DNA of 61,950 nt, filler included. It is 3 parts of 3 records of this genome, joined end to end, with 100 filler letters (N's around TTAATTAATTAA, not from the genome) between each part and the next. Parts side by side here need not be neighbours in the genome. Positions count along the whole stretch, not along the records: positions 18,115 to 49,938 come from DRR723986_1339; 2 more parts are not named here. One strand, 5' to 3'. Both the position numbers and the translations under genes were made by a program. How positions within the stretch are numbered: the first letter of the stretch is position 1; every line of letters starts with the position of its first letter. The notes below the pieces were generated by a model, which did no database searches, was not told the origin of the DNA, and saw nothing but the letters and a program-made list of their open reading frames with translations. Positions 13,793 through 57,813 of the stretch are shown here, one piece after another.

Positions 13793-14003
13793 AAGGTTCT
13801 CCCATGCAAGCTTTTGAATTATGTGGCGAAAATCCCCGCCTTGTTGTGATCCGAAACTGGGGGCTGAACCAGGCAACGTCAACCCCTGCGTTCATTTGCC
13901 CCTTGGTGGAAGGGGCCGGGAGACTCGACAAGCCTGCGCAAAAACTGAAGGGTAAACCGCCGCAAAACTGAGATTGCGGTCCGTAATTTTAAGGAGCTCA
14001 TTC

Positions 14004-14639
14004 ATGTCTGCACTTTTGCTCGGAGACGAGGCACCGGATTTCGAAGCCGACAGCACGGATGGTCCGATCCGTTTTCATGAGGCGATCGAAGGGTCCTGGG
14101 CGGTTCTGTTTTCCCACCCCAAGGATTTCACGCCGGTCTGCACCACCGAACTGGGAATGACCGCCAAGCTCAAGGACAAGTTCGCAGCCCGTGGCGTCAA
14201 GGTTTTCGGCGTTTCGGTCGATCCCATCGAGGATCACCATGCCTGGGTTGGTGACATCGCGGATACGCAAGGCGTTGCCCTGAACTTCCCGCTGATTGCC
14301 GATCCGGATCGTAAGGTGGCCACCGCATACGGCATGATCCATCCCAATGCCAACGATACGCTGACCGTGCGGTCGCTGTTCGTTATCGGCCCGGACAAGA
14401 AGATCAAGCTCAAGATCGAATACCCGGCATCCACGGGCAGAAACTTCGATGAAGTCATCCGCGTGATTGACAGTCTGCAGCTCACCTCCGCCCACAAGGT
14501 CGCCACCCCGGCCAACTGGGTGTCCGGTGAGGATGTCATCATCGTCCCGGCGGTGAGCGATGAAGAGGCGAAGGAGAAATTCCCTGAAGGCTGGAAGACC
14601 CTGAAGCCTTATCTGCGTGTCGTGCCGCAGCCCAAATAA
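14004..14639 (+). CDS. 1-Cys peroxiredoxin (Prx6 type)
   Basis: FSHPKDFTPVCTTE, YPASTGRNFDE, ATPANW, PYLR. Confidence 0.95.
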   Translation: MSALLLGDEAPDFEADSTDGPIRFHEAIEGSWAVLFSHPKDFTPVCTTELGMTAKLKDKFAARGVKVFGVSVDPIEDHHAWVGDIADTQGVALNFPLIADPDRKVATAYGMIHPNANDTLTVRSLFVIGPDKKIKLKIEYPASTGRNFDEVIRVIDSLQLTSAHKVATPANWVSGEDVIIVPAVSDEEAKEKFPEGWKTLKPYLRVVPQPK

Positions 14640-14730
14640 CGGCTGAACAGAACGGATGAAACGGCTGGCGGCGCATGAAAAAAGGCGCCGCCGTCTCTAG
14701 GTCTGGTCAGGGCAGGGACCTGCGACGGGA

Positions 14731-15588
14731 TCACACCGTCGCCAGCAAGGCCTTGAGGGCAACACGGTAGTCCGGATAGCGGAATGTAAACCCAAGCTCG
14801 TCCTTGAGGCGCTGGTTGGAAACCCGCTTGTTTTCGCCGTAGAAGGACCTGGCCATCGGTGTGAGATCCGCGGTTTCGAACGGGATCTCGGGCGGGGCTT
14901 CGACGCCGAGCAGCTCCGCGGCAAAGGCCACCACATCCTGCGGCGGGGCCGGTTCATCGTCCGTGACGTTGAAAACCCGCGTCGACGGCTTTGCCATGGC
15001 AGCCTTCAATGCGCCCGCAATATCGGCAACGTGAATGCGGTTGAAGACCTGACCCGGCTTCACTAGCCGCCGCGCCGTGCCCTTCCTGAAATTCTCGAAT
15101 GCATTCCGGCCCGGGCCATAAATGCCCGAAAGGCGGAAAATCTGCACCGGCAGGTCATTCTGTTCGGCAAATGCCAACCAGGCCACTTCCGCCGCAACAC
15201 GCTGGACGGAGCGTTTGGAAACGGGGTGGAGCGGAGTTTCCTCATCGACCCAGGCACCGTCGTGATTGCCGTAGACACCGACTGTGGAGAGGTATCCTAT
15301 CCAGCGCGGTTTCGCGCCGGCAATCTCATTGGCATATTGGTTCAGCACCGGGTCGCCGGCTTCATTCGGAGCAATCGAGACCAGTATATGCGTCGCTTGC
15401 TTCAGTGCTTCGGCAACGCCGTCGCCTTGAGAATTGCCGTCGAAGAGAAACGGTTCGACACCCAGTGTCCGGAGCGCCTCCATCTTGTCCGAAGAACGCG
15501 TTGTGCCGCCGATCCAGTCGAACTGGTCACGCACTTCTTCCACGAACGCCTTGGAGGAAAACCCGGTGCCAAAGATGAACAGACGCAT
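14731..15588 (-). CDS. Atypical SDR / NAD-dependent epimerase (YeeZ-like)
   Basis: IFGTGFS, YLSTVGVYG, RLSGIYGPGR, FNRIHVADIA. Confidence 0.88.
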   Translation of the reverse strand: MRLFIFGTGFSSKAFVEEVRDQFDWIGGTTRSSDKMEALRTLGVEPFLFDGNSQGDGVAEALKQATHILVSIAPNEAGDPVLNQYANEIAGAKPRWIGYLSTVGVYGNHDGAWVDEETPLHPVSKRSVQRVAAEVAWLAFAEQNDLPVQIFRLSGIYGPGRNAFENFRKGTARRLVKPGQVFNRIHVADIAGALKAAMAKPSTRVFNVTDDEPAPPQDVVAFAAELLGVEAPPEIPFETADLTPMARSFYGENKRVSNQRLKDELGFTFRYPDYRVALKALLATV

Positions 15589-15593
15589 AGGTT

Positions 15594-16421
15594 CTAAAGC
15601 TCCAGATGCTTGCGGCGGATTTCATAAAGCGCAACGCCCGTGGCAACGGCCAGGTTCAGGCTGTCGGCCTGTCCGACCTGCGGAATGCGGATCAAGGTAC
15701 GGCAGGCGGCTGCCATGTCGTCTTCCAGGCCCTTCTGCTCGTTGCCCATGACCAGCAGAACCGGCTCGGCATAGTCGGGCGTGCGATAGTCTACCGATCC
15801 CTTCAGGTGGGTGGCCGCGACGGTGCCGGGCCATTTTTCGGCCAGTGACTTGAATTCGTCCTTGCCGAGTTTGGCCAGCGGCACATGAAACAGCGATCCC
15901 ATGGTGGCGCGCACCGCTTCAACCGCGAAGGGATCCGTGCAATCACCGACCAGCATGACACCCGCACCACCGACCGCATCGACCGTACGGATGATCGTGC
16001 CGAGGTTGCCCGGATCGCGCACCCGGTCGAGTGCGACCCAGAGCGTGGTACCGGCGGGATCAATGTCGCGGGCTCCCAGAAGCTTCTGCTCGTAAACACC
16101 GACAACCATCTGCGGATTGTCCTTGCGCGTCATCGCGGACATGACGGCGGTCGATGCTTCCAGGATCAGGGCGCCGCGTGCCTTCGCGGCAGCAGCGGCC
16201 TTCTGCGCGACAGGATTGTCCCGCGCTTCAGGCCCGAGCGCGAGATAACGCACGCCCCAGCCGGCTTCCAGCGCATCGGTGGCCAGCTTCAGGCCTTCGG
16301 CCACGAACAGGCCCGACTGGCTGCGGTGCTTGCGCTGCGCGACGAGCCCCTTGATTTCCTTGACGATCGGGTTGGAATGGCTGGTGATCTGTTTCACCGC
16401 CCCCTGGCGTTTTTCGATCAT
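15594..16421 (-). CDS. TrmH/SpoU family RNA methyltransferase
   Basis: DPGNLGTIIRT, VRATMGS, GNEQKGL, DSLNLAVA. Confidence 0.93.
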   Translation of the reverse strand: MIEKRQGAVKQITSHSNPIVKEIKGLVAQRKHRSQSGLFVAEGLKLATDALEAGWGVRYLALGPEARDNPVAQKAAAAAKARGALILEASTAVMSAMTRKDNPQMVVGVYEQKLLGARDIDPAGTTLWVALDRVRDPGNLGTIIRTVDAVGGAGVMLVGDCTDPFAVEAVRATMGSLFHVPLAKLGKDEFKSLAEKWPGTVAATHLKGSVDYRTPDYAEPVLLVMGNEQKGLEDDMAAACRTLIRIPQVGQADSLNLAVATGVALYEIRRKHLEL

Positions 16422-17380
16422 CTGCTGCTCCAGCGTGAAAAGAGCGACGTGGACAGTGCGCGCTTGCCGTCCTCCTCGCGGATGACCAGTTCGCCGGATT
16501 CCAGCAGGCCGCCTTCGGTGTCCATGGTTTCTGCCATGAGTTCGTGAATGGACACGAAACTGGAGCGGATCGCATAGGCGGTCAGGATCATGAACAATGC
16601 GTCCTTGTCCAGAAGCTGCTTCAGATCCGCGAGCATGCCGGGCAGGCTGGTGTAGATGTCCCAGACCTCGCCCTTCGGGCCGCGGCCGTATTTCGGTGGG
16701 TCGAGAATGATGCCGTCATAGGTGTTGCCGCGCCGCACTTCGCGGGCAACAAATTTCGAAGCGTCCTCGCAGATCCATCGGATCGGCAGATCTTCGAGAC
16801 CTGACATCTCCTGGTTCTCGCGGGCATAACCGATCGCCTTCTTGGAGGCGTCCACATGGGTCACCTGCGCCCCTTCCGTCGCCGGCAGCAACGAGGCAAG
16901 GCCGGTGTAGCCGAAAAGGTTCAGGATCTTCAGCGGCTTTTCCGGTGCGCGCTCGCGTTCAGCGCGGATCTTGCCGTTGACCCAGTCCCAATGGGCGGCC
17001 TGTTCGGGGAAGACGCCGACGTGGCGGAACGACATGAAGCGACCGTTGTAGCGAACAGGCCCATATGACATCGGCCAGGTTTCCGGCACGCTTCCGGAAA
17101 ACTTCCAGCGGCCCGGGCCTTCTTCTTCCGTGTCGCCGGAAAAGACGGCATCGGCACGGTTCCAGACACTTTCCTTCTGCCGCCGGGCCCCCATGGCCTG
17201 CGGTTCCGGACGCACGATGGTGAACCGGCCATAACGCTCCAGCTTCTCGCCCTGGCCCATGTCCAGAAGCCGATAGTCCTTCCAGCCCTTGGTTTCCAGG
17301 ATCACCGGCCAGCTCTGGTGTGCAGGCTCGCCGGACGGGGCATAGGTGGAGGCACTGGTCTGATCCGCCACGGGTCTCAC
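16418..17380 (-). CDS. Class I SAM-dependent (rRNA) methyltransferase, RlmI/RlmK-like
   Basis: GVFPEQ, LNLFGYTG, HVDASKKA, ILDPPKYGRG; 4-nt overlap with the TrmH gene. Confidence 0.88.
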   Translation of the reverse strand: MRPVADQTSASTYAPSGEPAHQSWPVILETKGWKDYRLLDMGQGEKLERYGRFTIVRPEPQAMGARRQKESVWNRADAVFSGDTEEEGPGRWKFSGSVPETWPMSYGPVRYNGRFMSFRHVGVFPEQAAHWDWVNGKIRAERERAPEKPLKILNLFGYTGLASLLPATEGAQVTHVDASKKAIGYARENQEMSGLEDLPIRWICEDASKFVAREVRRGNTYDGIILDPPKYGRGPKGEVWDIYTSLPGMLADLKQLLDKDALFMILTAYAIRSSFVSIHELMAETMDTEGGLLESGELVIREEDGKRALSTSLFSRWSSR

Positions 17381-17575
17381 TCGTTTTCTGTCAGGTTTGA
17401 AGTTGTTCCGCCATAGAACATCCTGCCTTCTTTTGAAAGTAGATTAGACGTTCCTGTGTGGTCGAAAAGGTTTCCTGGCCGGCTTTTGAACCCGTCCGGT
17501 CCAAAGGTTTCGTGGACGGCTACAGCAGCACCGCAAAGGCAATTTCCCGCTGCCGTCGGCGATCCTGTCGAGCGC

Positions 17576-17616
17576 AAAAGAAAAGGGCGGGGAGCCGAAG
17601 CTCACCCGCCCTCTTT
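17576..17616 (-). terminator. Terminator-like hairpin after the MCP gene
   Basis: Plus strand AAAAGAAAAGGGCGGGGAGC-CGAA-GCTCACCCGCCCTCTTT; U-rich tail on the minus strand. Confidence 0.75.
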
Positions 17617-17632
17617 GGTCAGATGTGTGCGA

Positions 17633-18014
17633 TCAAGCCGCGGCAACCTCGGAGAGGAACTGCTCGACTTCACGCTTCAGTTCGTGGGTCTTCTGGGTCA
17701 GTTCTCCGGAAGCCGACAGCACCATGTCCGCAGACGAGGAGGTCTGGTCAACGGCCTGCGAAAGCTGCGACATGGAAGAGGACACGGCACCGGTTCCTTC
17801 CGCCGCGCGCTGCACGTTCTGCGAAATCTCCGCGGTGGCGGCGCCCTGCTGTTCGACGGCCGATGCGATGGCCGTGGTATAGGTGTTCACCTCGGTCATG
17901 GTCTCCGCGATCTCGCCAATGGCAACGACGGATTCCTTGGTCGCGTTCTGGATCTCGGTGATCTGGCTGGAGATCTCCTCCGTTGCCTTGGAGGTCTGGG
18001 TGGCCAGCTCCTTC
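17633..18014 (-). CDS. Methyl-accepting chemotaxis protein, C-terminal fragment
   Basis: KELATQTSKATEEISSQI...IASAVEQQGAATAEISQNV signalling-domain motifs; cut by the contig end. Confidence 0.9.
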
Positions 18015-18114: not shown

Positions 18115-20173
18115 CGTCCCCATGGGCTTTGGCGGCCCCCACGCCGCGTTCTTCGCGACCCGCGACGACTACAAGCGCTCCGCACCGGGCCGCATCATCG
18201 GGGTCAGTATCGACCGCCTCGGCAACCAGGCGCTGCGCATGGCAATGCAGACCCGGGAACAGCACATTCGCCGCGAGAAGGCGACCAGCAATATTTGCAC
18301 GGCGCAGGCGCTGCTGGCGATCATGGCCGCGTTCTATGCCATGTACCACGGCCCTGTCGGCCTGCGCCGGATTGCCGAGCGCACTCATCACCTGACCGGC
18401 CTGCTCGCCAGGGGCCTCTCGGCTGCCGGCATGGCGCCGGACAACGCCAGCTGGTTCGACACCCTGACCCTGACCGTTGGCGAACGCCAGGGCGAGATTG
18501 TCGAGCGTGCCCTGGCCCAAGGCATCAACCTGCGCCTGATCGGCAGCGACCGACTCGGTATCGCGCTCGACGAAACCACCAGCGCAGCCGATGTACAGCT
18601 ACTGCTTGGCGTCATCACCGGCAAGCCCGCTCCGGAGCTGACGGAGCCGGCTGACGGGCTGCCGCCGGCGCTACAGCGCGAGGTGGACTACCTGCAGCAC
18701 CCGCTGTTCAACGAGTATCACTCGGAGACCGAGCTGCTGCGTTATATGCGCCGCCTGGAGGACAAGGACATTGCCCTGAACCGGGCGATGATTCCGCTGG
18801 GCAGCTGCACCATGAAACTCAATGCGACAACCGAGATGCTGCCAGTCACCTGGCCCGAGTTCGGCGCCCTCCACCCCTTCGCCCCGGCGGAGCAGACCGT
18901 GGGCTATCGCCAGCTACTGGATGAGCTGGAGCATATGCTGCTGGAGTGCACCGGCTACGATGCCATTTCCATGCAGCCCAACGCCGGCTCCCAGGGTGAG
19001 TACGCCGGACTGCTGGCCATCAAGCGCTATCACGAGAGTCGTAGCGACGCGCAGCGCAATATCTGCCTGATCCCCTCCTCCGCCCACGGCACCAATCCTG
19101 CGAGTGCGGCCCTGGCCGGCATGAAAGTCGTCATCGTGGAGTGTGACTCGCGCGGCAACGTGGACATGGCGGACCTGAAAATGAAGGCCGAGCGCCACAC
19201 CAACGACCTGGCGGCCATCATGGTCACCTACCCGTCCACCCACGGCGTCTTTGAGGAGTCCATCGTCGAGCTCTGCGAGGTAGTCCACCAGCACGGCGGG
19301 CAAGTCTATGTCGACGGTGCAAACCTCAATGCGCTGGTGGGTATCGCCGCCCCCGGCAAGTTTGGCGCCGACGTGTCACACCTGAACCTGCACAAAACAT
19401 TCTGCATTCCCCACGGTGGCGGTGGCCCCGGCATGGGCCCCATCGGCGTGGGTGCACACCTGCAGCCCTTCCTGCCAACCAACCCGGTGGCGCCGGTACC
19501 AGGCCTTGCCCCGGACAACGACGTGGTGTCATCGACCCCGTACGGCAGTGCGTCCATCCTGCCGATCTCCTGGGCCTACATCGCCCTCATGGGCGGCGAG
19601 GGACTGACCGAGGCGTCCAAGGTTGCCATTCTCAGCGCCAACTACATCGCCCACCGGCTGCGGGACCACTACCCCATCCTGTATACCGGCACCACCGGCA
19701 ATGTTGCCCACGAGTGCATCATCGATATTCGCCCGATCAAGGAGGCCAGCGGTGTTTCCGAGGAAGACGTGGCCAAGCGGCTGATCGACTTCGGCTTCCA
19801 TGCGCCCACCATGTCCTTCCCGGTGGCGGGAACCCTGATGGTCGAACCCACCGAGTCCGAGTCCCTCGCGGAACTGGACCGGTTCTGCGATGCCCTGATC
19901 ACCATCCGCGACGAGATCCGCGCGGTCGAGGCGGGCCAACTGGACCCGGCGGACAACCCGCTGGCCAACGCCCCGCACACCCTGGCCGACGTTGTCGCCA
20001 GCGACTGGGCTCACCCCTATAGCCGCGAGCAGGCGGCCTACCCGGTTGATTCCCTGCGGACCAGCAAGTACTGGGCCCCGGTGAACCGGGTCGACAACGT
20101 GTATGGGGATCGCAACCTGTTCTGCGCCTGCCCGGCGATCGACAGCTGGCGTGAACTGGAGGAAGAAGCCTGA
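18115..20173 (+). CDS. gcvP: Glycine dehydrogenase (decarboxylating), P protein, 5'-truncated
   Basis: [71 protein letters not shown]. Confidence 0.98.
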
Positions 20174-20253: not shown

Positions 20254-21552
20254 ATGCCCAACAGAACACTGACCTACGCACTGACCCTGCTGGTGCTGCT
20301 CTGCGCCAGGCCAAGCCTGGCCAGCAGCGGCGCGACGATAGCGGCCATCTATATCGATGACCAACCCCAGCAGAGCGTCACCGGCGTAACGGTGTCGGTG
20401 GGCAAGGAACGTATGAGTGGCCCGCTGAACCTGCAGCAGCCCATACCCTCCGGAGCACGCATCCAGACACCCCCGCGGGTCACCCTGGACCTGCTCACCC
20501 AGAACCAGAACAGCCTGCGGGTGGCGCCGAATTCCGATGTCCGCATTGGGGTAAGCGCCCAGGGCGAGAACCACTCGGTCAGCAGCGGCAGCCTGTTCGC
20601 CTGGGTGAAGACAAAGCTGGACTTCTTCAACATCAGCGACAGTAACGGCCGCTTCCAGGGGGCCGCAAAATCAACCGCCTATGGCGCTACTGTCGGTCGC
20701 GGCGGCATCAGTTTCACTACCAGCGAAGGCGTCATCCGGGTCAACCAGCAGGTGCCGGTCAGCGTCGCCGGTACCGCGGTCAAGACCAATGGGCGCAGCC
20801 CGCTGACAGTGACCCGCTCTTCCAGCCTGGCGGCTGACCAGGGCTCGCAATCCTTCGACTTCGAGGCCTTCCAGTCACAACCGCAGGACTTTGCCAGCTT
20901 CGATGACGCCACCGACAGCCTGCAACAGTGGATTGCCCAGGCAGAGGCCGCCCACGACTGGGAGGCGGCAGTCGACCTGTATTCCACCCTGGGAGGGATG
21001 TATCTCGACGAGGGCGAGGCAGACGAGGCGGTGAGCTACCTCAACCGGGCCCTGGAGATCAATTACACCAATGGTTCCGGCCTGCTTGACCCGAGTTTCT
21101 CGGAAGATCACACCTTGCTGGGCTATGCCTTCCTGGAGCTGGAGTGGCCCATCCTGGCGCTGCTCAATTTCCGCCGGGCAGAAGAAATCCTGCTGGAAAT
21201 CGATCCCTATAACCCTTTGCTTGCCGATTCATGGATCGACCAGGCCGAAGCACTGCAGCAACTGGGCGACGAGCAGAGCTCGGTTGAACTCGCGCTCCAG
21301 GCAGCGGAACTGCTGGGTTACCAGTTAGACGAGGACATGGCACTGCTGGACGAGTGGATGGAGTCGGATGATCTGGAAATGCAGTACCTGGCCATCGACT
21401 ATGCCTGGGAAGTCAGCGATCGCCTGATGAGTATGGGCTGGGCGCTCCAGTTTGCCCAGCAGCCCGCGGAAGCGGATGAGTTATTCGCTACCGCCGGGGA
21501 ACTGGAGGATTTCATCAGCGACTGGGAAGCAGAAGTCGATGCCTATCGCTAA
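20254..21552 (+). CDS. Exported protein with a FecR-like beta domain and a very acidic TPR-like C-terminus
   Basis: Signal peptide; FecR-pattern segment GARIQT...SLRVAPNSDVRI...AAKSTAYGATV...TTSEGVIRV; TPR-like helices (LYSTLGGMYLDEGEADEAVSYLNRALEI). Confidence 0.7.
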   Translation: MPNRTLTYALTLLVLLCARPSLASSGATIAAIYIDDQPQQSVTGVTVSVGKERMSGPLNLQQPIPSGARIQTPPRVTLDLLTQNQNSLRVAPNSDVRIGVSAQGENHSVSSGSLFAWVKTKLDFFNISDSNGRFQGAAKSTAYGATVGRGGISFTTSEGVIRVNQQVPVSVAGTAVKTNGRSPLTVTRSSSLAADQGSQSFDFEAFQSQPQDFASFDDATDSLQQWIAQAEAAHDWEAAVDLYSTLGGMYLDEGEADEAVSYLNRALEINYTNGSGLLDPSFSEDHTLLGYAFLELEWPILALLNFRRAEEILLEIDPYNPLLADSWIDQAEALQQLGDEQSSVELALQAAELLGYQLDEDMALLDEWMESDDLEMQYLAIDYAWEVSDRLMSMGWALQFAQQPAEADELFATAGELEDFISDWEAEVDAYR

Positions 21553-23173
21553 ACGACTGGCGGCGTATACCGCCATCTTCCTGGCCCTGCTGCTGCTCGT
21601 CGGGAGCCTGCTGGGCGCCGCCTGGCGCCCGCTTGATTACATCGTGTTCAAGGCGCTGGCGATCGGTGACTCCCCGCAGCTTGAAGACGACATCCGGATC
21701 ATTGACCTGCCCTACTACAAGGCCGGCTCCGGCTCCTTCGACCTGCCTGACTTCCGCGCCCGCACCGTTGACCTGCTGCAGCAGATCGGCGAGCTGAGCG
21801 CCAACTATGAGCGGCCACGCGCGGTAATTCTTGACCTCTACTACGGGAGCGACCAACGCCTTGTGCCGGAGCTATTGGCCGCCATCGCGGGGCTGCAGGA
21901 GAAAAAAATCCGGGTCTACGGCGTGTTCGACACCATGGGCCTGGCGGGCACCTCCTTTGAACAGCGCCGGGCGGATCACGCCATGGCAATCTACGAGCGC
22001 CTCGACGGCGGTCTGCTGCATACCCGGTTCGACCAGAAGCTGGGAGCCATCACCTACCGTTCCCATCTCGAGATACACTACGACCAGGAAGATATGCAGG
22101 CCAGGGTTATGGCGCTGCCTCTGCGCGTTGCCATGGATCTGAACCAGATCGAGGAACCTGACCCAGTGCGGGAGTATGTGCTGCCCCACGGTGACCAGGC
22201 CGATGTAACGAGCAAGACACTCCAGTTCACTCACCCGCAGGGCAGTACCAGCGGCGGCCGTTTCCTGCAGCAGGGGACCGAGCTGGCCGCGCCTGACATC
22301 CACGACAAGTTGCTGATCGTCGCCAGCTTCGAGGGCGACCGCGTGGTCCAGGGTCGACCCGGCCCCGAGCACCTTGCCTGGGCGCTGGATGACCAGCGCA
22401 ACGGCAACCGCAATGCGCGGATACCGATGAACCAGCCCCTGATTATCGTCGGCGTGGTGCTGTTTGTGGCCGCGTGGACCGCGCTGGTTTATGCCGTGCT
22501 GTTCAAATACGCCAAGTCCCTGCAGACCCGGCCTGGCGCACTGGCGTTACTGGCCCTGCTCGCCGGACTTGCTGCCATCGGTGGACTATCGGCCCTGGTG
22601 CTGATGATTGGCCAGGTGCTGCCAGTCGGCCTGGCGCTGTTCGCGGCGGCGCTGGCCGCAGCGGTGGCCTGGCACTTCGCCAATCGGTTCCTGGTGACCG
22701 GCGTGGCGGAAGGTTCCGGCAAGTACGACGTGTTTATCAGTTATTCACGCAAAGACGGCGACTGGGTCTACAACAGCCTGTACAAACCGCTGAGCGAGCT
22801 GCGCAAAGCCGATGGCTCGGCTCTGTCGATCTTCTTCGATCGCAACGAGATCAGCCTGGGGGAGGCTTTTACCTCGAAATATATGTGGGCGATCGTCGAT
22901 AGCCAGCATTTCATACCGGTATTCTCGGAAAACTATTACGGCACGCGTAGCCACGGCCGCAATGAAATGGACCTGGCCTACAAGCGCCATGTCGAAAAGA
23001 GTATCCGAATACTTCCAGTGGCTTTCTCCGATGACAGCGTGCCGGAGATTTACAATGGATTGAATTACCTGAACGTGACCACCGAGACCGAATTTTTCGC
23101 CGCGCTGGCAGCCGAACTGACCGCGCCGGAAGCGTCAGCCAGGGACGATTCGGATTCCGCAGGTAGCGCCTGA
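21539..23173 (+). CDS. CHASE2-like sensor - 3TM - TIR domain membrane receptor
   Basis: N-terminal TM, PLDY..F, IRIIDL, PRAVILDLYY, KLLIVAS, PGPEHLAWAL (CHASE2 pattern); three TMs; then YDVFISYSRKDGDWV...IFFDRNEISLGE...AIVDSQHFIPVFSENY...RNEMDLA...ILPV (TIR); overlaps the upstream gene by 14 nt. Confidence 0.85.
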   Translation: MPIAKRLAAYTAIFLALLLLVGSLLGAAWRPLDYIVFKALAIGDSPQLEDDIRIIDLPYYKAGSGSFDLPDFRARTVDLLQQIGELSANYERPRAVILDLYYGSDQRLVPELLAAIAGLQEKKIRVYGVFDTMGLAGTSFEQRRADHAMAIYERLDGGLLHTRFDQKLGAITYRSHLEIHYDQEDMQARVMALPLRVAMDLNQIEEPDPVREYVLPHGDQADVTSKTLQFTHPQGSTSGGRFLQQGTELAAPDIHDKLLIVASFEGDRVVQGRPGPEHLAWALDDQRNGNRNARIPMNQPLIIVGVVLFVAAWTALVYAVLFKYAKSLQTRPGALALLALLAGLAAIGGLSALVLMIGQVLPVGLALFAAALAAAVAWHFANRFLVTGVAEGSGKYDVFISYSRKDGDWVYNSLYKPLSELRKADGSALSIFFDRNEISLGEAFTSKYMWAIVDSQHFIPVFSENYYGTRSHGRNEMDLAYKRHVEKSIRILPVAFSDDSVPEIYNGLNYLNVTTETEFFAALAAELTAPEASARDDSDSAGSA

Positions 23174-23207
23174 CCTCGCGGCCAGGCGTAGCGGCGTCCT
23201 GCCTGGC

Positions 23208-23369
23208 TCAGGTCTGGGTACCGGGCGGTCCCGGGCGCTGGGTGCCGGGGGGTCCCGGACGCTGAGTCCCGGGCGGTCCCGGGCGTTGGGTGCCGGGGGG
23301 TCCCGGACGCTGGGTCCCGGGCGGTCCCGGACGTTCTGTACCTTCCTTTTCCTTGTCCTGGTCAGACAT
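23208..23369 (-). CDS. 53-aa tandem-repeat peptide MSDQDKEKEGTE(RPGPPGTQ)5T
   Basis: AGGAG 6 nt before the ATG at 23369; repeat units differ only at third codon positions. Confidence 0.8.
   Translation of the reverse strand: MSDQDKEKEGTERPGPPGTQRPGPPGTQRPGPPGTQRPGPPGTQRPGPPGTQT
23214..23333 (-). repeat. Five tandem 24-nt units encoding RPGPPGTQ
   Basis: Consensus CGY CCG GGA CCS CCC GGB ACY CAR; units alternate between two sub-types (48-nt higher-order period). Confidence 0.95.
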
Positions 23370-23422
23370 GCACATCTCCTTGCGTTTACCTCTGCCTAAA
23401 CCTAGTCGCTGGATGGGGATTG

Positions 23423-25420
23423 TCAATCTGGCACCGTGGCCAGGATCGCATCAAAGCGCGCGGGATCCAGCGCCCGGAGCTTGACCAGGTCAGGATCCTC
23501 GAGCAGGAGCTCCGCCGAGAAGCCCAGCGACCTTGCCTGTGCCAGCGCCACATAGGCCGACTCCGGGTTGGCCAGGGCCCAGTGCACCAGGGCGGCAAAG
23601 TAGTGCGAAGTCGGCGGCGAACTGCCGGTAGCGAGCATGCGCTGGGTATAGGCCAGCGCCTCCGACTCGTGCCCCGAGTACGCGTGGTACAAGCCGAGCA
23701 GGCCCAGCGTTTCCCAGTCGTTGGGGTTACGTGACAGGCGTTGTTCGGCGAGGGAGATGGCTTGGGCATAGTTGGCCAGTTCCTGCTCCCTGTCACCCAG
23801 CGCACGATAGCTCTCGGCGATCCGCCCCCAGACCCGATGATCATCGGCAATGTTGCCGGCGGCGGCCTCATGCATCGCCGCGGCCCGGGCATAGTTGCCC
23901 TGGTAGTAATACAGCAGCCCGAGGTTGGTGTAGCTGATACCGAGGGAGCCGATGCTGTCGGCGCCTGCCTGCTCTATCACCTGCATCCACACCTGCTCCG
24001 CCTCGGCTTCCCGGCCGAGCATGTACAGGGCTGAGCCCTGGCCGATGAGTGCGCTGAGCAGGTCAGGTACCTTCACCAGGACCTCGTCATAGGCAAGCCG
24101 GGCTTTGTCATACTGCGCGGCAGCTATATAGAAATTCGCCAGCACAAGCCGGGTTTCCCAGTTGCTTTCGTCAAGGGCGACCGCACGCTGGAGATAGTCC
24201 TCGGCCTCCTCGTAGCGCCCGGTATCACCATAGGTCTTGCCGATTTCCTGCAAGGTCCGCGGGCGATCAGGGTAGTCGCGGTCGGCGGCGAACAGGTAAT
24301 CCAGTGACTTGGCGTATTCTCCCGCCTCGCGGTAGAGCACGCCCAGGGCGATCTGCACATCCCAGCCCGGTATGCCTGACTCGGACTTCGCCAGCGCCCG
24401 GAGGCAGGCCCGTTCCGCCAGGCTAAATGCCTCAGCTTCCCGGCTGTGGCTGTACTGCGCCAGTTGCGCGTCGCAGATGCCGGCAAAGGCGTCGGCGTAG
24501 TCCGGGTCGATCTCAACCGCTTCGGTAAAAAATGCGACCGCCTCATCAAGAATCGCGTCATTCCACGGCAGGCGCAGCTGGGCGCGGCCCTTCAGGTAGG
24601 CGTTGTAGGCGTCAAAGTTGGTGGTCGATGGACCAAGGGGCAGCGCACCCTCCTCCATGATCATCGGACGAATCGCACGCACGACTGCTCCGGCGATCTG
24701 GTCCTGCAGCGCGAATATGTCCTCCAGGGTGCCGTCATAGGTCTCCGACCAGAGGTGGTAGCCGTTGCTGGTATCGATCAACTGGGCGGTGACCCGCACG
24801 GCATCGCCGGTTTTGCGGACACTGCCCTCCAGCAGGGTCGCTACGCCCAGCGAGCGCCCGATAGCCATCACATCCTCGGTGGTGTCGCGAAAATGAAACG
24901 ACGAGGTTCTGGCGGCGACACGCAGGCCTTCAACCTGGGCCAGCACATTGAGCAGTTCTTCGGAAATACCATCACTGAAATAGGCATTGTCCGGGTCGCT
25001 GCTCATATTGGCGAAGGGCAGCACCGCAATCGACTGCGCCTGCGGATCGTCGACCGCCCAGGGAATCGTGCCGCGCTGCAGGTATAAACGTTCGTAATAG
25101 AGGTAACCAACCATCAGTACCAGGGTGCAGATCAGCACGAACTGCAAGGCATGGGCAGTGGATATCCTCGGCGGCGCGGCTTGTGCTTCCGGTGAGGGAA
25201 TAAGCCCCTCAGACGAGAGGTCAAAAACCCAGGACAGGAGCATGGCCACCGGGAAACCGCCAGCCATAATGTAGAGCATCAGGCGCATGGACCATTCAGG
25301 CAGCCCCATGATAGGCAGCATGATGTCGGCGACCTGAAGCACGGCCCAGGCCGCCGCCGCATAGGCGAAGGCAACCCTGAATACCTTACGGCGCTTCAGT
25401 TCGGCGATAAACGCCTGCAT
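23423..25420 (-). CDS. Membrane-anchored TolB-like(N)/TPR protein
   Basis: ELKRRKVFRVAFAY plus 3 TMs, SIAVLPFANMSSDPDNAYFSDGISEELLN, LEGSVRK, HLWSETYD, then multiple TPRs. Confidence 0.88.
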   Translation of the reverse strand: MQAFIAELKRRKVFRVAFAYAAAAWAVLQVADIMLPIMGLPEWSMRLMLYIMAGGFPVAMLLSWVFDLSSEGLIPSPEAQAAPPRISTAHALQFVLICTLVLMVGYLYYERLYLQRGTIPWAVDDPQAQSIAVLPFANMSSDPDNAYFSDGISEELLNVLAQVEGLRVAARTSSFHFRDTTEDVMAIGRSLGVATLLEGSVRKTGDAVRVTAQLIDTSNGYHLWSETYDGTLEDIFALQDQIAGAVVRAIRPMIMEEGALPLGPSTTNFDAYNAYLKGRAQLRLPWNDAILDEAVAFFTEAVEIDPDYADAFAGICDAQLAQYSHSREAEAFSLAERACLRALAKSESGIPGWDVQIALGVLYREAGEYAKSLDYLFAADRDYPDRPRTLQEIGKTYGDTGRYEEAEDYLQRAVALDESNWETRLVLANFYIAAAQYDKARLAYDEVLVKVPDLLSALIGQGSALYMLGREAEAEQVWMQVIEQAGADSIGSLGISYTNLGLLYYYQGNYARAAAMHEAAAGNIADDHRVWGRIAESYRALGDREQELANYAQAISLAEQRLSRNPNDWETLGLLGLYHAYSGHESEALAYTQRMLATGSSPPTSHYFAALVHWALANPESAYVALAQARSLGFSAELLLEDPDLVKLRALDPARFDAILATVPD

Positions 25421-25520
25421 AGAGATTGGCTCTTGTGCTGAATCCGGCCTGACTATAGCACCTCCCCGATGCAGCCTGAACTGAAATGCGCCTGCGGCAG
25501 GCTTGTTCCATGCGTTGCAA

Positions 25521-25548
25521 TTGCTATTCGGAACGGCTGCTCTATGAT
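25521..25548 (+). promoter_or_regulatory. Putative sigma70 promoter of the caspase operon
   Basis: TTGCTA-N16-TATGAT about 40 nt upstream of ATG 25589. Confidence 0.4.
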
Positions 25549-25588
25549 TAGGGAACACTATTAGCTGAACGGCATTGATACCCGCCCG

Positions 25589-26548
25589 ATGAATAAGCGA
25601 GCACTACTGGTCGGCATCCAGGACTACGATTACGCACCGCAGCTTTTCTGCTGCGCCGAAGACGCCCGGGCAATGGCCGATGTCCTCGGACGCCACGCTG
25701 ACGGCGCGCTCAATTACGAATGCCTGGCCCTGACCAGTGATCAGGGACGAATCACCGAGGCCGAACTGCGCGGCAAGGTACGCGAGCTGTTTGCCGACGT
25801 GGCCGGCGGCGAGGTGATCTTCTACTTTTCGGGGCACGGGGTCATAACCGATACCGGCGGCTACCTGGTAACCCAGGACGGCCAGGTAAATGACCAGGGT
25901 TACCCGATGTCCGAACTGCTGCAGATCGCAAACCGCAGCGGCGTTGGCTCGGTCCTGCTGATTCTCGACTGCTGCCATAGCGGCAGTATCGGTGGTAGCG
26001 GTGCAGACCCTTACCAGAACCAGGTGCTGCTCAGCGAGGGCGTCACCATCCTGGCCGCCTCATCACCGCAACAGGAATCCCGCGAGGGTCTGGAGCACAG
26101 CCTGTTCACTGAACTGGTGCTGGACGCGCTCAATGGTGGCGCCGCTGATATCCGGGGCAATGTGTCCGCGGCCTCTTTGTACGGCTATGTAGAGCAGTCT
26201 CTGGGGGCCTGGCAGCAGCGCCCCATGTACAAGTCCAACGCGCGCAGGCTGAACCCGATCAGACACTGCGAACCGGCGGTACCTGACCAGTTGCTGCGCC
26301 AGCTGCCGACACTGTTCACCTCGCCGCAACTGGCCATTGCGCTCGACCCGGGCTTTGAACACACCGATCCCAGTGCCGAGGCGGAAAAGGTCGCAATGTT
26401 CGACCAGTTCAAGGCCCTGCGCAACGCACGCCTGCTGGAGACGGCCGGCGGCGAAGACCTGTACTACGCTGCCATGCGCGGCGGCTCAGTCAAACTCACA
26501 CCGCTGGGACGATTTTACTGGCAGCTGGTAAAGAACCGGCGGATATAG
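25589..26548 (+). CDS. Caspase-like cysteine protease (peptidase C14) with a C-terminal accessory domain
   Basis: RALLVGI, FYFSGHG (His), ILDCCHSG (Cys), TILAAS, SLFT..LDALNGGAAD; C-tail LDPGFE...YYAAMRGGSVKLTPLGRFYWQLVKNRRI. Confidence 0.93.
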   Translation: MNKRALLVGIQDYDYAPQLFCCAEDARAMADVLGRHADGALNYECLALTSDQGRITEAELRGKVRELFADVAGGEVIFYFSGHGVITDTGGYLVTQDGQVNDQGYPMSELLQIANRSGVGSVLLILDCCHSGSIGGSGADPYQNQVLLSEGVTILAASSPQQESREGLEHSLFTELVLDALNGGAADIRGNVSAASLYGYVEQSLGAWQQRPMYKSNARRLNPIRHCEPAVPDQLLRQLPTLFTSPQLAIALDPGFEHTDPSAEAEKVAMFDQFKALRNARLLETAGGEDLYYAAMRGGSVKLTPLGRFYWQLVKNRRI

Positions 26549-26557
26549 GAGCGTTAC

Positions 26558-27076
26558 ATGTCGGACTCCGATACTTCCAGGGCCGTGCGGCCAGACGAAT
26601 ACGGGGACAGTTACCGGGCGGACTTCCTTACCATGTACCATGAGTACGTGGCGTCTGCCGACCGGATTTCAGAGCGCAGGACCGCCGCCAATACTTTCTT
26701 TGTCAGCGCCAACGCGGCGCTTCTCGGCCTCAACGGCTACTTCCTGCAGAAAGACGGGGAGCCTTCCCTGCTGATCAACGATGCCCTGTGGGTACCCGCA
26801 GTAGCGGCCATCCTCATGTGCTGGATCTGGCGCGGCCTGATTTCATCCTACAAAAGCCTTAACGGCGCCAAGTTCGGGGTCATCCTGGCCATGGAGCGCC
26901 AGCTTCCCGCGGCACCGTATACGGACGAGTGGGCAAACCTGCAGGACAGCCAGCGCAGCAGCAAACACATTCCGCTCAGTGATTCGGAGAAGTACGTGCC
27001 CATGGTCTTCATGATCGTCAACGTGGGTATCTTCACCCTGAGCTTTACCAATTTCATTCTTGGCAAGGTCAGCTAG
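26558..27076 (+). CDS. RipA-like small oligomeric membrane protein (2 core TMs plus a hydrophobic C-tail)
   Basis: Y..YV.SADRISERR..AN.FFVS.N, W...I.SY..LN.AKF.VI..ME.QLP..PY..EW pattern, recalled from Francisella RipA-like proteins; GGAG RBS. Confidence 0.7.
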   Translation: MSDSDTSRAVRPDEYGDSYRADFLTMYHEYVASADRISERRTAANTFFVSANAALLGLNGYFLQKDGEPSLLINDALWVPAVAAILMCWIWRGLISSYKSLNGAKFGVILAMERQLPAAPYTDEWANLQDSQRSSKHIPLSDSEKYVPMVFMIVNVGIFTLSFTNFILGKVS

Positions 27077-27085
27077 GAGATCAGT

Positions 27086-27931
27086 ATGCCCAGGGGCTTA
27101 TCCCTACATATCGGAGTCAACGTCTGCGACCCGGATCACTACGGCGGCTGGTCCGGCCCGCTGGAATGTTGCGAAGCGGATGCGGACGCCATTCACGGCC
27201 TGGCCGTGGAAGCCGGATTCGAACCGACGGTGCTGAAGACGGCACAGGCCACGCGTACTGCCGTGGCCGATGCCATCAGCTCGGCGGCTGCCACCTGTGA
27301 GGCCGGCGACTTCTTGCTGGTGAGCTACGCGGGGCACGGTGGCCAGATTGCCGACGTCGATGGCGATGAGAGCGACCAGATCGACGAGACCTGGTGCCTG
27401 TACGACGGCCAGTTACTCGACGACGAACTGAACGTCCTATGGGCAAAATTCCATGCGGGCGTGCGTATCCTGGTGCTGTCAGACAGTTGTCATAGCGGCT
27501 CGGTAACCAAGAGCGTCGCCAGCCGGCGCGGGGCGATGGGCGCTCGCAACGCCCTGTTCTCCGGGACAGCGCCACAGGCGGCGGGAAAGGCCCGCTTCAT
27601 GCCCCGACAGGCCGCGGCAGCGACCCAGCGCAAGAACCGTGATTTTTACGCCGGGCTGCAGACCTCCCTCCCCAACCCGCGACCGGCGATCAAGGCCAGC
27701 GTCAGGCTGCTCTCGGGCTGCCAGGATAACCAGCTCTCCACCGAACTGGACGGCAACGGGGTCTTTACCCGCAATGTGCTGCGGGTATGGGACAAGGGTA
27801 ACTTCCAGGGCGACTATCGGGAATTTCACCGCGCTGTTATCACCAATATGCACGAAAGCCAGCAACCCAATCACCTGGTGATTGGCGGTGAAAATTCCGA
27901 GTTCGACGCTCAGCGACCGTTTTCCATCTGA
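27086..27931 (+). CDS. Metacaspase-like peptidase C14
   Basis: SYAGHGGQ, DGDESDQIDETWCLYD..LLDDEL, LSDSCHSGS, LLSGCQDNQLS, GVFT, QQPN. Confidence 0.93.
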   Translation: MPRGLSLHIGVNVCDPDHYGGWSGPLECCEADADAIHGLAVEAGFEPTVLKTAQATRTAVADAISSAAATCEAGDFLLVSYAGHGGQIADVDGDESDQIDETWCLYDGQLLDDELNVLWAKFHAGVRILVLSDSCHSGSVTKSVASRRGAMGARNALFSGTAPQAAGKARFMPRQAAAATQRKNRDFYAGLQTSLPNPRPAIKASVRLLSGCQDNQLSTELDGNGVFTRNVLRVWDKGNFQGDYREFHRAVITNMHESQQPNHLVIGGENSEFDAQRPFSI

Positions 27932-49938: not shown

Positions 49939-50038
49939 NNNNNNNNNNNNNNNNNNNNNNNNNNNNNNNNNNNNNNNNNNNNTTAATTAATTAANNNNNN
50001 NNNNNNNNNNNNNNNNNNNNNNNNNNNNNNNNNNNNNN
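49939..50038. other. Artificial contig-joining spacer
   Basis: N44-TTAATTAATTAA-N44. Confidence 0.98.
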
Positions 50039-50093
50039 TCGCTTGAAGCTAAGAAGGGGAAGTTTACACATCGTTAGGTAAGTAACAAGCCGA

Positions 50094-50500
50094 CTAAAGT
50101 AGTGATATCTTGACTGTTTTGTTTTCAACGTCAACTGAAATCCAATCTGCTTTTTCTTCACCAGGCAAGCAGTCAATTAGGCTGTCACCAATCGAATAGC
50201 TGGCGAGTGCTCTTTTACCCAGTATTATTGTCATGTTATAAAGGTCCTGACCATTTTTCCCATGTAGGCATTCGCTTCAATTTCTCCGGTATCAATTACA
50301 TGCTGTTTACTCAGGAGCCGTCGATTAAGTTTGGGATCTAGATATGTTGCCGAAAAAACTCCATCACACCAAAACCCTTGTAATTCTAACTCCTTCGAAT
50401 TCTTAAGTGTTCGACAGAGATGGAACTCAAGGCGTCCACAAAACTCATCATTGAAAGATTCGATAATCCGTTCCATTTTTGCAGCGTTATCAATTTTCAT
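50094..50500 (-). pseudogene. Frameshifted hypothetical gene (pseudogene or homopolymer error)
   Basis: MKIDN...GFWCDGV...AYMGK continues, after adding one A to the A5 run near 50255, as NGQDLYNMTIILGKRALASYSIGDSLIDCLPGEEKADWISVDVENKTVKISLL*. Confidence 0.7.
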
Positions 50501-50993
50501 TCGCAAAGATTCAGAATCTCTGTCTTATTTCTAAAGTTACTATTTTCTACAGCCCTCTAATGGGGGTTATGTAAAGTAGGGACTAGATCGATTCCCCATA
50601 TCAAACGAAAGTTTTGCAGCCAAACCCGTGGGAGCAACAAAACAATTTGTCACCTATGACTGTTGCTCTACATGCTCACTTTCACTGGGATCGGGCAAAT
50701 TAATCAGTCGTGAAGAAAGAATAACCAATGTGTAAAGTACCTATACGACCATAGTGGCATCTGCCTAGCACCTACAGATCGTGACCAGAGTAGAACTGAT
50801 AAGCGCTGATTGTTGTGAAATTTGGAGAGAACGGAATCGCGGTCACTTAATATCGTGGTCATCAAAAACTTGCTATTTTTCTAGCAACAGCTTACGATAG
50901 ATAGCCGAGGTTTTTCAAATCCGCATCCGCGTGCCCACGGTTTCTATGCTCTCGGGTTACGTTTAATGCAAAGCACTTTTGATCTGTTGTTTG

Positions 50994-52445
50994 TTACCGT
51001 TCAAGGATGTAGAAGAACAGTCCAAGTAATAGCACCAATAGTATTATCACTATGACTGACACGATGTACGACACAATTAGGGCGGCCACAATTCTACCCC
51101 ACGATCTTCTGGCCAAAAACCGCTTTAGGTTTATCATGAAAAACGGTGCAAACAAAAAAGTGACCACCAGTGGAATCGCGCCTGAAACTGCATTCGCAAT
51201 TATGAATTGAATTTCCGGTTCTGCCGAAAAGGTTGGCAGCGCAGCCAAGGCCGTAATAAGAGCTTGTAGCCCTGCCCCAATGCTACCCATCGAAAAAAGG
51301 AATAGTGATATTTGTTTAAATGATTTTCCAGGAGGATTGGCTTTAAGTATTAGGGACGCAGGCATCAGCATCACTGAAGTCAGGAGGCCGCTAATAGCAT
51401 AAAATAGCTCTCCTACAATCGGTGCTGAGAGAAAGCTAAAGAAATCGGCAAAAGGGGCCGGCTCGCGAAGTATAGTTATAGATTGCTCATTAAGCTTGTT
51501 AAACACATAGATTGAAATAGCGCCTGAAACCAGGTACAAGGCTGCCGCCTTTTTCAAGGATTCGTCAAGAATGCTTACTCTATGGAAAGACGTGGGGCTT
51601 TTTATAAATGTAATTAGAAGACCAGCAAAGCCAAAAACGCCGCCAAATAAGTACGAGGCAACACTCCCAGCTTCATTAGGAGGCATTTTTGCCAGTTCAA
51701 GACTATCCCGTGGATTCTCATTTCTTGCTTTCCTGATTTGCTCTGTTTCCCGCTCAAAACTATCGATTGCCGTATCAGTCAGCTTTTCGGACAATAGTGC
51801 TCTTATCTTCGGATGAATGCTTGCGAGCACGGTAGGGATTTTCTTAGCTTCTATTGAATTGGTCTTTTGAGTTTCTTCAAGTAAAGTGTTAATGAAAGCT
51901 TCCAATTCTTTTTCTGGGTCAACGGAGTATGTTTCATCTGTTACCAAATGGCAAAAGTCACTAAAGTTTTTTGACATGAGCAATTCGGTTTTTAACCTGA
52001 CAGCTTCTTTCAGACTTTCAACATGTACTGACTCGTTTGCAAAAGCAATTGCCAATATTAATGTGCCGAGATTGTTATACGCTGTGAAATTCTCAGATGA
52101 AACTTCCTTTTTCAATGTAACTCTATGCCACATTTTCGCCGCTTTTTCTAGATCCTCAGATTGAAGGTAATTCAAGGCTGTTTCGTCTAGGCGGTTATGG
52201 CTGGCAAACCAGAATAGCGCATTGGATAGTTTTTTTCGATTGATCTCAATGCTTGTCAATGCTTTTTCAACGGCTCCATTGGATCTATCTGGCTTTCCTG
52301 TGAAATCCAAATCAGTATCGAATTCAATATTTGTCCCAAGCATTTGAAGTGAATTGATTATATCTTTTTGCCTAGCAATTGTCTGTTGATTGGCTCCAGC
52401 AAAAATTCCAATGACATGATATGGGTTATGTCTGATTAAATTCAC
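50994..52445 (-). CDS. Hypothetical protein: soluble helical N-domain plus multi-TM C-domain
   Basis: 483-aa ORF; NPYHVIGI and TPR-like AYNNLGTL; about 6 hydrophobic segments in the C-terminal half. Confidence 0.75.
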   Translation of the reverse strand: MNLIRHNPYHVIGIFAGANQQTIARQKDIINSLQMLGTNIEFDTDLDFTGKPDRSNGAVEKALTSIEINRKKLSNALFWFASHNRLDETALNYLQSEDLEKAAKMWHRVTLKKEVSSENFTAYNNLGTLILAIAFANESVHVESLKEAVRLKTELLMSKNFSDFCHLVTDETYSVDPEKELEAFINTLLEETQKTNSIEAKKIPTVLASIHPKIRALLSEKLTDTAIDSFERETEQIRKARNENPRDSLELAKMPPNEAGSVASYLFGGVFGFAGLLITFIKSPTSFHRVSILDESLKKAAALYLVSGAISIYVFNKLNEQSITILREPAPFADFFSFLSAPIVGELFYAISGLLTSVMLMPASLILKANPPGKSFKQISLFLFSMGSIGAGLQALITALAALPTFSAEPEIQFIIANAVSGAIPLVVTFLFAPFFMINLKRFLARRSWGRIVAALIVSYIVSVIVIILLVLLLGLFFYILER

Positions 52446-53086
52446 GATATCATTTCGCTCGATTGATAATCAAGAGCGTTGGCAATATTGCACTCTTTTG
52501 TTTTTTACCTTGATGCGTACTTGTTCGGGTTGTTCAAAGAGACGCTACTGTTCAGCTTAGGTCACGGCTTAGTATTGCCAATTTCGAAACTAGGCAAACA
52601 CACGAAAGCGCAATGAAGGGTTCTGATGCAAACATAAAGCGTAACTTTCGGTTCCTAAAATCAATGAGATCAGATCTGGCATGAATATTTCGTGATTCAA
52701 TTATTGTTGTAGAATATTAGACAGTCTACCAAGATAGCATATTTGGAAATATTTGTAAGTAATGTTGGATGTTAGCAGTAATTTTATCTGCATTTCCTTG
52801 CAAACAAAAAGCCCTCTAATAAAGCTTATGTAAACCTACCCTACCCCCCAACCTCAAACCACCATCCCTGCGCTTGCAGTCTTCCAATATCAAATGACCC
52901 AAACTCTCAGAACATAACCATGCTCCTCGCTCGGACCGCACAGCCAAACAGCTGACAGATCCTCTTGTGCAAGATATCGCATACATCCGGAAAAATCGCC
53001 AGACAATCAGTACAACAGCGATATATAAAGAATTGTTCAATGCTGAATTCCCGCGAATACATTCTCTTATCGATCCCCAGGAAAAC

Positions 53087-53120
53087 AAAAAAAGCACTTC
53101 CCGCCTGCGCAGGAAGTGCT
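53087..53120 (-). terminator. Rho-independent terminator of the lipoprotein gene
   Basis: Minus strand AGCACTTCC-TGCGCAGGCG-GGAAGTGCT followed by a T-run. Confidence 0.75.
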
Positions 53121-53200
53121 CAAATTTTACTAAAACCTGCCGGCCGCCAGATTGACCTTGCAAGCTCAAATTCATCCAGATAAGCTGCCCCAGGCGCCTG

Positions 53201-55344: not shown

Positions 55345-55503
55345 ACTGCTACTGTTTTTGTTAGTTGTCAGAATGTGTTTGTCTTGTTAAGACAAAAATA
55401 GAAAAATAGGTGTTCTCCAAGGGACTCATGCTGTACAAGAATGACAGCATGCGGGTGTTTTGCGACAAACGCCATTTTTACCCTCTTAGTCTCAATCCAG
55501 ACA

Positions 55504-57810: not shown

Positions 57811-57813
57811 AGC

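Follow-up and report, generated by a model that had tools for sequence, protein, structure and literature searches.

Comparative sequence analysis identified a 53-aa ORF on the minus strand of the window (the whole stretch of DNA that was analysed, 61,950 nucleotides with filler included) as a genuine protein-coding gene under strong purifying selection in two distantly related marine bacteria. The gene (23208..23369, stop included) encodes a non-globular, Pro/Gly-rich repeat protein, which consists of the acidic and Lys-rich leader MSDQDKEKEGTE, five RPGPPGTQ units, and a terminal T. Very probably, the gene is real and belongs to the TIR/caspase/8xMP cassette in which it lies. It was considered a real small protein because it is intact under selection and occupies the same place, behind a membrane TPR gene, in both bacteria.

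The reading frame runs from the ATG at 23369-23367 to the TGA at 23210-23208, and the Shine-Dalgarno sequence AGGAG is located at 23376..23380 on the same strand, 6 nt 5' of the ATG. The five 24-nt units (23214..23333, minus strand) were called by Tandem Repeats Finder both at a period of 24 (5.0 copies, score 177) and at a period of 48 (2.5 copies, 93% matches, score 216), and the runner-up array in the window scored 64 (24 rows in all). The units alternate as A and B, since the period-48 call outscored the period-24 call. All variation within the array is synonymous and falls on the third codon position of five columns (CGT/CGC, CCG/CCC, GGG/GGC/GGT, ACC/ACT, and CAG/CAA). The chance of five variable columns sharing one codon phase is P ~0.012, and this one-phase variation within the window array is, taken alone, suggestive only as evidence of coding. 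The 53-aa protein contains no hydrophobic segment and therefore neither a signal peptide nor a transmembrane (TM) segment. The original prediction had described the purely synonymous third-base variation, the AGGAG ribosome binding site, and the lack of a signal peptide, and all of these features were recovered, with 5/5 columns varying as described. Arg is the sole charged residue of the repeat unit and was invariant in 10/10 units of the two loci; the RPGPPGTQ units hold the strings RPGP and PGPP.

Several other views of the ORF and its product were set aside. A longer TTG-started form (23426, 72 aa) was not conserved in the second genome. A collagen-like triple helix was ruled out because the repeat period is 8 residues and not 3, with Gly spaced by 3 and then 5 residues instead of standing at every third position. 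The consensus of SH3 or GYF ligand motifs fitted inexactly, and such domains are absent from the cassette. Downstream of the stop of the 53-aa ORF, between the two convergent genes, there is a GC-rich hairpin without a T-run (23157..23194, minus strand; -32.2 kcal/mol for a 76-nt stretch, z -1.99). This hairpin was not among the calls of the terminator scan, and the promoter/terminator scan as a whole gave nothing useful.

The second locus was obtained from a scan of one genome per species (185,579 species) with the back-translated exact pattern PGPPGTQRPGPPG, which returned one match, in a Halieaceae MAG. The orthologous ORF of this MAG (L021 4154-4309) encodes MADKDKDESP followed by three RPGPPGTQ units, RPGPAGTP, a further RPGPPGTQ, and R. 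It has AGGAG 8 nt 5' of its ATG and starts 1 nt past the stop of a 667-aa TPR gene. The open frame, the Shine-Dalgarno sequence, and the five units are common to both ORFs, and both the repeat sequence and the copy number of five are kept between the two loci. The arrays differed at 32 of 120 bases, with 30 of the 32 differences at the third codon position, and 38 of the 40 residues (95%) were identical. At least 30 of 32 differences would fall in one phase by chance with P ~3e-12. The third positions are saturated, since 75% of them differ between the two arrays. In a more conservative column test over the ten units, 8/8 third-position columns were variable, compared with 2/16 first- and second-position columns (Fisher P = 6e-5). 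The conservation of the repeat (95%) may be set beside the window-vs-MAG identity of the neighboring proteins, which was 58% for the TPR protein, 71% and 69% for the caspases, and 49% for 8xMP. These counts bear out the original prediction of a real gene under protein-level selection, for which frameshifts and non-synonymous drift in homologous arrays were the points to look at; the one homologous array had 0 frameshifts, 0 stops, and 2 non-synonymous changes (both in the single MAG unit RPGPAGTP) against 30 third-position changes.

The case for selection comes from two independent loci only, and the units within each of them are related to each other. The mean differences between units were 2.8 and 5.3 within the arrays and 6.2 between the arrays (6.4 for same-position pairs). 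The arrays have thus been homogenised or re-expanded in each lineage, as the units are closer within than between arrays, and because of this homogenisation the 40 residues are not 40 independent witnesses. A near-identical strain is represented in marine plankton metagenome contigs, in which the sole change inside the ORF, 23331 A>G, is synonymous (CGT>CGC). The contigs of this strain break inside the repeat array (window 23239-23261 and 23341), so that they leave the copy number unconfirmed. Because assemblies break inside the array, short-read assemblies will often lose or split the gene.

The small protein stood alone in searches for relatives. It matched 0 families in Pfam, PADLOC, and NCBIfam. 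Neither the window peptide nor the MAG peptide was present among 15 billion predicted proteins. The MAG TPR protein, encoded on the same contig as the MAG peptide, was present there, which indicated that the 53-aa gene is unannotated. A search of 41 relatives for the peptide gave a best E of 0.0125, which is noise. In a set of 5.8 billion proteins, a single-sequence query found none at E<=1 among 1246 candidates, and a profile query found one unrelated Micromonospora protein at E 2.5. Among 1.84 billion representatives there were 94 matches at E<=0.001; inspection of 18 of them (the top and the shortest) showed that 18/18 were other low-complexity repeats with a period of 8 residues (RRPGDPAT, TQRPxPPA, TQRPNDPT, and RPGASGTL), compositional look-alikes rather than relatives. 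Repeats of this kind, with R-P at the same spacing, were seen in proteins P0127-P0132, P0124, P0197, P0202, and P0212 (RRPGDPAT, PPATQRPR, TTQRPNDP, and RPGASGTL). Most such public 8-residue-period repeats resemble either Pro/Thr linkers or 24-nt DNA repeats that have been translated, and evidence of kinship with the 53-aa gene was not seen. The ESM Atlas gave no usable match to the peptide. Pattern scans able to detect the identical repeat returned 0 matches in the metagenome collection and 0 in the viral collection, and tandem peptide repeats were sought in 55 loci (428,500 bases), where the MAG locus and a poly-Ser run were the only finds. Among the 11 runs checked for the locus, no RNA run contained it. 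A literature search found no paper on such a peptide in TIR systems, and no such peptide is mentioned in the available text of the Thoeris surveys and the conflict-system survey.

The cassette of about 7.7 kb (20254-27931) contains seven genes including the 53-aa ORF. A 432-aa TPR protein with an N-terminal signal-peptide-like segment (20254..21552, plus strand) is encoded just upstream of the TIR gene, whose product is a membrane protein with a C-terminal TIR_2 domain (21539..23173, plus strand; the ATG at 21539 is the likely start of an ORF listed from 21452). The TIR gene converges on the 53-aa gene, with 34 nt between the two stops. The minus strand then carries the gene of the 665-aa TolB-like/TPR protein (23423..25420), which comprises a conserved N-terminal region with three TM-like segments, a TolB-like domain, and TPR repeats. 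Divergent from this gene are those of C14 caspase 1 (25589..26548, plus strand; 319 aa, with a C-terminal extra domain), the 8xMP membrane protein (PF24838; 26558..27076, plus strand), and C14 caspase 2 (27086..27931, plus strand; 281 aa). In both cassette caspases the His/Cys dyad is intact and a signal peptide is absent. The C14 proteases and TPR proteins named as neighbors in the original prediction were found, two of each, while the CHASE2 domain that it placed in the neighboring TIR protein was not supported by any Pfam match, even at E up to 10. The outer domain of this TIR protein (21539-22700, plus strand) matched no Pfam family at all up to the same E.

The gene order C14, 8xMP, C14, head to head with TPR and then the peptide, is common to the window and the MAG. 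A TIR protein adjoins in both loci, and the two are unrelated in sequence and architecture; the MAG TIR protein has its TIR at the N-terminus, together with a single TM segment and an outer domain, and its gene lies 80 nt downstream of the peptide ORF on the same strand. The cassette TIR proteins are membrane proteins of 544-573 aa and 347 aa with TIR_2 matches and are not encoded beside the caspases. PADLOC recognised only the caspases and, weakly, the TIR in the cassette. The flanks differ too, with a gcvP-like gene and a TonB-dependent receptor in the window vs rmuC and glyQS in the MAG. The nearest genome compared (G001) was 98% identical over 14000-18014 and then had no collinear match to at least 53800, which makes the cassette accessory DNA within a region of at least 36 kb that is specific to the strain. 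Several copies, 66-88% identical to the 360 bases that end at the break (~17655-18014), lie elsewhere in G001. At this edge, the best N-terminal match of a glycine-cleavage P-protein ORF (18122-20173, plus strand) begins at profile position 263 of 429, and the ORF may be a 5'-truncated or rearranged gcvP. Farther along the window, the GC content falls from ~0.60 to 0.41-0.51 over 50001-60000, a drop that points to a second block of foreign DNA.

Of 401 genomes of the order, 5 contained relatives of caspase 1, as did 2 more among 306 genomes of the MAG's family. These relatives lay directly behind a short ThsB-type TIR gene in 7/7 loci examined, a count that leaves out a second, stop-containing match in one genome (L032). 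After the ThsB_TIR-C14 pair, a small RyR-like gene or the gene of a membrane protein often came next. Caspase 1 aligned end to end, including its C-terminal domain, with the seven ThsB_TIR-C14 caspases at 34-37% identity. Its sole NCBIfam match was caspase_w_EACC1, at 103 bits vs a cut-off of 140. In another Halieaceae-family genome, a 61-aa Pro/Gly/Lys-rich, non-repetitive ORF (L038 2739-2924, plus strand) overlaps the end of the DUF6338 gene of a ThsB_TIR-C14-DUF6338 operon, and this ORF might be either a chance product of GC-rich sequence or a further small, Pro-rich partner.

The 8xMP family was present in 20/401 sampled genomes of the class, and 8xMP was directly behind a ThsB-type TIR gene in 5/15 loci examined. 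These five loci (L040, L041, L043, L044, and L045, from class-level genomes) are two-gene operons of a short ThsB-type TIR and then 8xMP. Such operons look like a Thoeris-type system with 8xMP as a putative membrane effector. The neighbors of 8xMP were checked with Pfam for 40/168 ORFs, immediate neighbors only, and among those 40 there was no caspase and no TPR protein; the repeat peptide was absent from the TIR + 8xMP loci examined. Neither 8xMP (best E 0.34) nor caspase 1 had a match in a sequence search of the PDB, and a literature search found no paper on 8xMP or PF24838.

The closest described counterpart of the cassette is type IV Thoeris, which couples a short TIR protein to the caspase-like protease ThsE and, in the available part of the report, operates through an N7-cADPR signal and promiscuous proteolysis with Arg at P1 (Rousset et al., bioRxiv 10.1101/2024.10.24.620036). 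As far as that text describes the system, the cassette resembles it in having TIR and C14 genes together, in the combination of a caspase domain and a C-terminal extra domain in caspase 1, and in the position of the caspase 1 relatives directly behind ThsB-type TIR genes. It differs from the system so described in that its TIR proteins are large TIR_2-type membrane proteins not adjacent to a caspase, and in having two caspases, 8xMP, one or two TPR proteins, and the repeat peptide. The available text of the same paper names no peptide component (bioRxiv 10.1101/2024.10.24.620036). The cassette also resembles the TIR + 8xMP operons in coupling an 8xMP membrane protein to a TIR protein, unlike which it is not limited to two genes. 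Since the relatives of caspase 1 and of 8xMP elsewhere partner short ThsB-type TIR genes, the cassette was regarded as a compound Thoeris-like system. On the basis of sequence, it was filed as a putative new variant of the Thoeris-like TIR-caspase systems, with the peptide as a candidate new, unclassified component.

The partner of the 53-aa protein in its transcription unit is the 665-aa TolB-like/TPR protein. The true start of its gene is the ATG at 25420 and not the GTG at 25558, as the MAG protein aligns from residue 1. The protein begins with KRRK, ahead of the three TM-like segments. Pfam found only TPR families in it and no HTH. In its homologues, the TolB-like/TPR module follows either a kinase with one TM segment or domains of the cyclase or response-regulator type. 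The positive-inside rule and the kinase-TM-TolB-TPR relatives predict a periplasmic location for the TPR domain. Six closer orthologues of the TPR protein were 87, 57, 55, 51, 51, and 41% identical, and a Pro/Gly tail was present in none of the six. The best NCBIfam match was TIGR04510 ("putative peptide modification system cyclase"), at 54.8 bits vs a cut-off of 400; membership was rejected, as the match covers the shared TolB-like/TPR region only, and a literature search found nothing on "peptide modification system cyclase" in a relevant sense. The acidic charge of the TPR domain (-28) was discarded as a clue to its ligand, since the paralogues are equally acidic. A metagenome scan with the TPR C-terminus found three distant kinase-TolB-TPR loci without such a peptide, and among plasmids the only relatives were rhizobial and of the cyclase type, all of them covering less than 80% of the query.

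With a gap of 53 nt (window) or 1 nt (MAG) between the stop of the TPR gene and the ATG of the peptide gene, the peptide is probably made together with the TPR protein. The original prediction had put forward three functions, in the first place an octapeptide precursor processed by the caspases, and also a TPR ligand or protease decoy and a translation sensor working through EF-P and PPG. Our tentative choice among the readings, which we hold as possible, is that the 53-aa protein acts as an extended multivalent ligand of its TolB-like/TPR partner. A receptor-ligand pair is the most economical reading because the peptide has an operon partnership with a TPR protein, a fold that habitually binds extended peptides. 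The five identical octads would form an extended, polyproline-II-like rod presenting one Arg per octad, and this rod would lie along the TPR superhelix. The contact between them would set or report the state of a sensor governing the TIR, caspase, and 8xMP response. The main objection to the TPR ligand is topology, as an outside-facing TPR domain would have to meet a peptide without a signal peptide. With the TPR domain predicted on the periplasmic side, the peptide would have to get out of the cytoplasm, as might happen on a breach of the membrane. A complex prediction with TPR residues 115-665 and the peptide, made without alignments, scored 0.00 ("no answer") and speaks neither for nor against binding.

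Peptide-receptor pairs of the RRNPP kind offer a comparison for this arrangement. Rap-Phr, NprR-NprX, PlcR-PapR, and AimR-AimP belong to Firmicutes and to phages of Firmicutes. Each couples a cytoplasmic receptor, whose output is an HTH or a phosphatase, to a pro-peptide that has an export signal and a single core. The window locus resembles these pairs in having a small peptide gene directly behind the gene of a TPR-domain protein, the putative binder. It differs in that the partner is a membrane TolB-like/TPR protein without an HTH and in that the peptide is leaderless and has five repeats.

The invariant Arg of each unit may point to the caspases instead of, or in addition to, the TPR protein. 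MALT1 paracaspase and the metacaspases are Arg/Lys-specific, and the caspase 1 model (mean pLDDT 69.7) was closest to MALT1 paracaspase, followed by metacaspases and caspases. Caspase 1 belongs to the clade seen in ThsB_TIR-C14 operons, and the caspase studied from an operon of this kind is strictly Arg-P1 specific according to the available text (bioRxiv 10.1101/2024.10.24.620036). From these relationships, the cassette caspases probably prefer Arg. Both keep the dyad, and they would share the compartment of the peptide, as both lack signal peptides. Contact of the peptide with the caspases, whether as substrate, pseudo-substrate, or scaffold, is somewhat doubtful and is not exclusive with the TPR ligand. 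The narrower proposal that the five Arg residues, the only charged residues of the units and unchanged in all ten, dock in the S1 pockets of the C14 proteases and are cut poorly appears more doubtful. The peptide would then serve as a pseudo-substrate brake, a labile antidote that is lost when translation fails, or as a five-site scaffold clustering caspase monomers. Arg-Pro bonds are cut poorly by most Arg-specific proteases, and since each Arg of the array precedes Pro, a pseudo-substrate or scaffold is suggested rather than a substrate. Against such a caspase-directed role, the peptide belongs to the transcription unit of the TPR protein and not to that of the caspases. In addition, Arg-P1 specificity is known for PsCaspase, whereas caspase 1 was compared with seven other caspases, and poor cutting before Pro is a generality that is not specific to the caspase 1 clade.

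The Pro-rich motifs themselves might also be the functional part, with PPG and RPGP slowing the ribosome so that the ORF reports the translation capacity or EF-P state of the cell, or with translation of the ORF tuning how stable the operon mRNA is or how strongly it is expressed. PPG motifs are EF-P-dependent pause sites, and the window protein has 5 of them and the MAG protein 4; the presence of PPG/PPP-type motifs is shared with the EF-P-dependent polyproline proteins. One MAG unit is without PP (PAG). Thr and Gln are conserved as strongly as Pro, and we know of no part for these two residues in ribosome pausing. The cores RAPP, RGPP, and RAGP arrest ribosomes and are strongly avoided in proteomes, as described in the available part of PMC12992588. 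The 53-aa ORF resembles the RAPP, RGPP, and SecM arrest peptides, as presented there, in being a small ORF with Arg-x-Pro/Gly-Pro strings that is hard to translate, and the RPGP of its unit is similar to the RAGP of SecM. It differs from them in that the exact cores RAPP, RGPP, RAPG, and RAGP are absent, in the fivefold repetition of the motif where arrest peptides have theirs near the C-terminus, and in the lack of a conserved downstream gene. The RAPP peptides described in the same portion of the source tend to be secretory or membrane proteins (PMC12992588), unlike the 53-aa protein, which has neither a signal nor a TM segment. Arrest peptides precede the gene that they regulate; in the MAG the TIR gene begins 80 nt downstream on the same strand, as this explanation would have it, while in the window no gene lies downstream on the ORF strand and the convergent gene ends 34 nt away. 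Taken together, a role in translational pausing seems unlikely.

It is quite improbable that the protein is a multi-core precursor, from which the neighboring caspases, cutting after each Arg, would release active PGPPGTQR octapeptides. Precursors such as yeast alpha-factor, the TRH precursor, and those of fungal RiPPs are cut at basic residues, and the 53-aa protein resembles them in its identical tandem cores, each set off by one basic residue and lying behind a short leader, and in the two neighboring proteases of a probably Arg-specific kind. It departs from them in lacking a secretory signal, spacers between the cores, and detected maturation enzymes, with no modifying enzyme or exporter found by Pfam in either the window or the MAG cassette. 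Its junctions are Arg-Pro bonds, which are poor cleavage sites.

A danger signal for neighboring cells, tied to a Thoeris-like suicide module, is very improbable; no other explanation squares a leaderless peptide with a TPR partner that faces outward and is encoded in the same operon. In the infected cell, a TIR signal would activate the Arg-specific caspases and 8xMP, and the cytoplasmic (RPGPPGTQ)5, whole or as octapeptides, would escape through the breached membrane. The periplasm-facing TolB-like/TPR sensor of sister cells would catch the peptide and prime their own cassette. If true, such a signal would be a bacterial counterpart of damage-associated signalling.

That the ORF is not a gene, being a tandem DNA repeat open by chance or the trace of a constraint on the other strand or on RNA, is hardly credible: gene callers did skip it, leaving the MAG peptide out of the predicted proteins that list its TPR neighbor, and unrelated 8-residue-period repeats resembling translated DNA repeats are common, but the differences between species are confined to one codon phase in 30/32 cases (P ~3e-12), start, Shine-Dalgarno sequence, frame, length, and five units are conserved while neighboring proteins are 49-71% identical, the antisense frame, which uses the same wobble positions with 34/39 residues conserved, has a stop within the window array, and no Rfam family reached threshold (one match of 20.9 bits vs a gathering score of 55).

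Small proteins regularly escape notice. Of the products of the seven-gene TIR/caspase/8xMP cluster, the 53-aa protein is the best conserved, yet it is absent from the public protein sets queried. That one locus can combine two independent TIR partners is seen from the cassette, which has both a ThsE-like caspase and 8xMP. These two TIR-partner effectors are joined there by caspase 2, the membrane TIR protein, the TolB-like/TPR membrane protein, and the peptide. If the peptide acts as a regulator, a bait, or a signal of a Thoeris-like system, it would be a new kind of part, a repetitive polyproline peptide, in bacterial TIR-caspase immunity and, being of synthetic scale, a simple handle on how compound membrane-linked systems are held off and set off.
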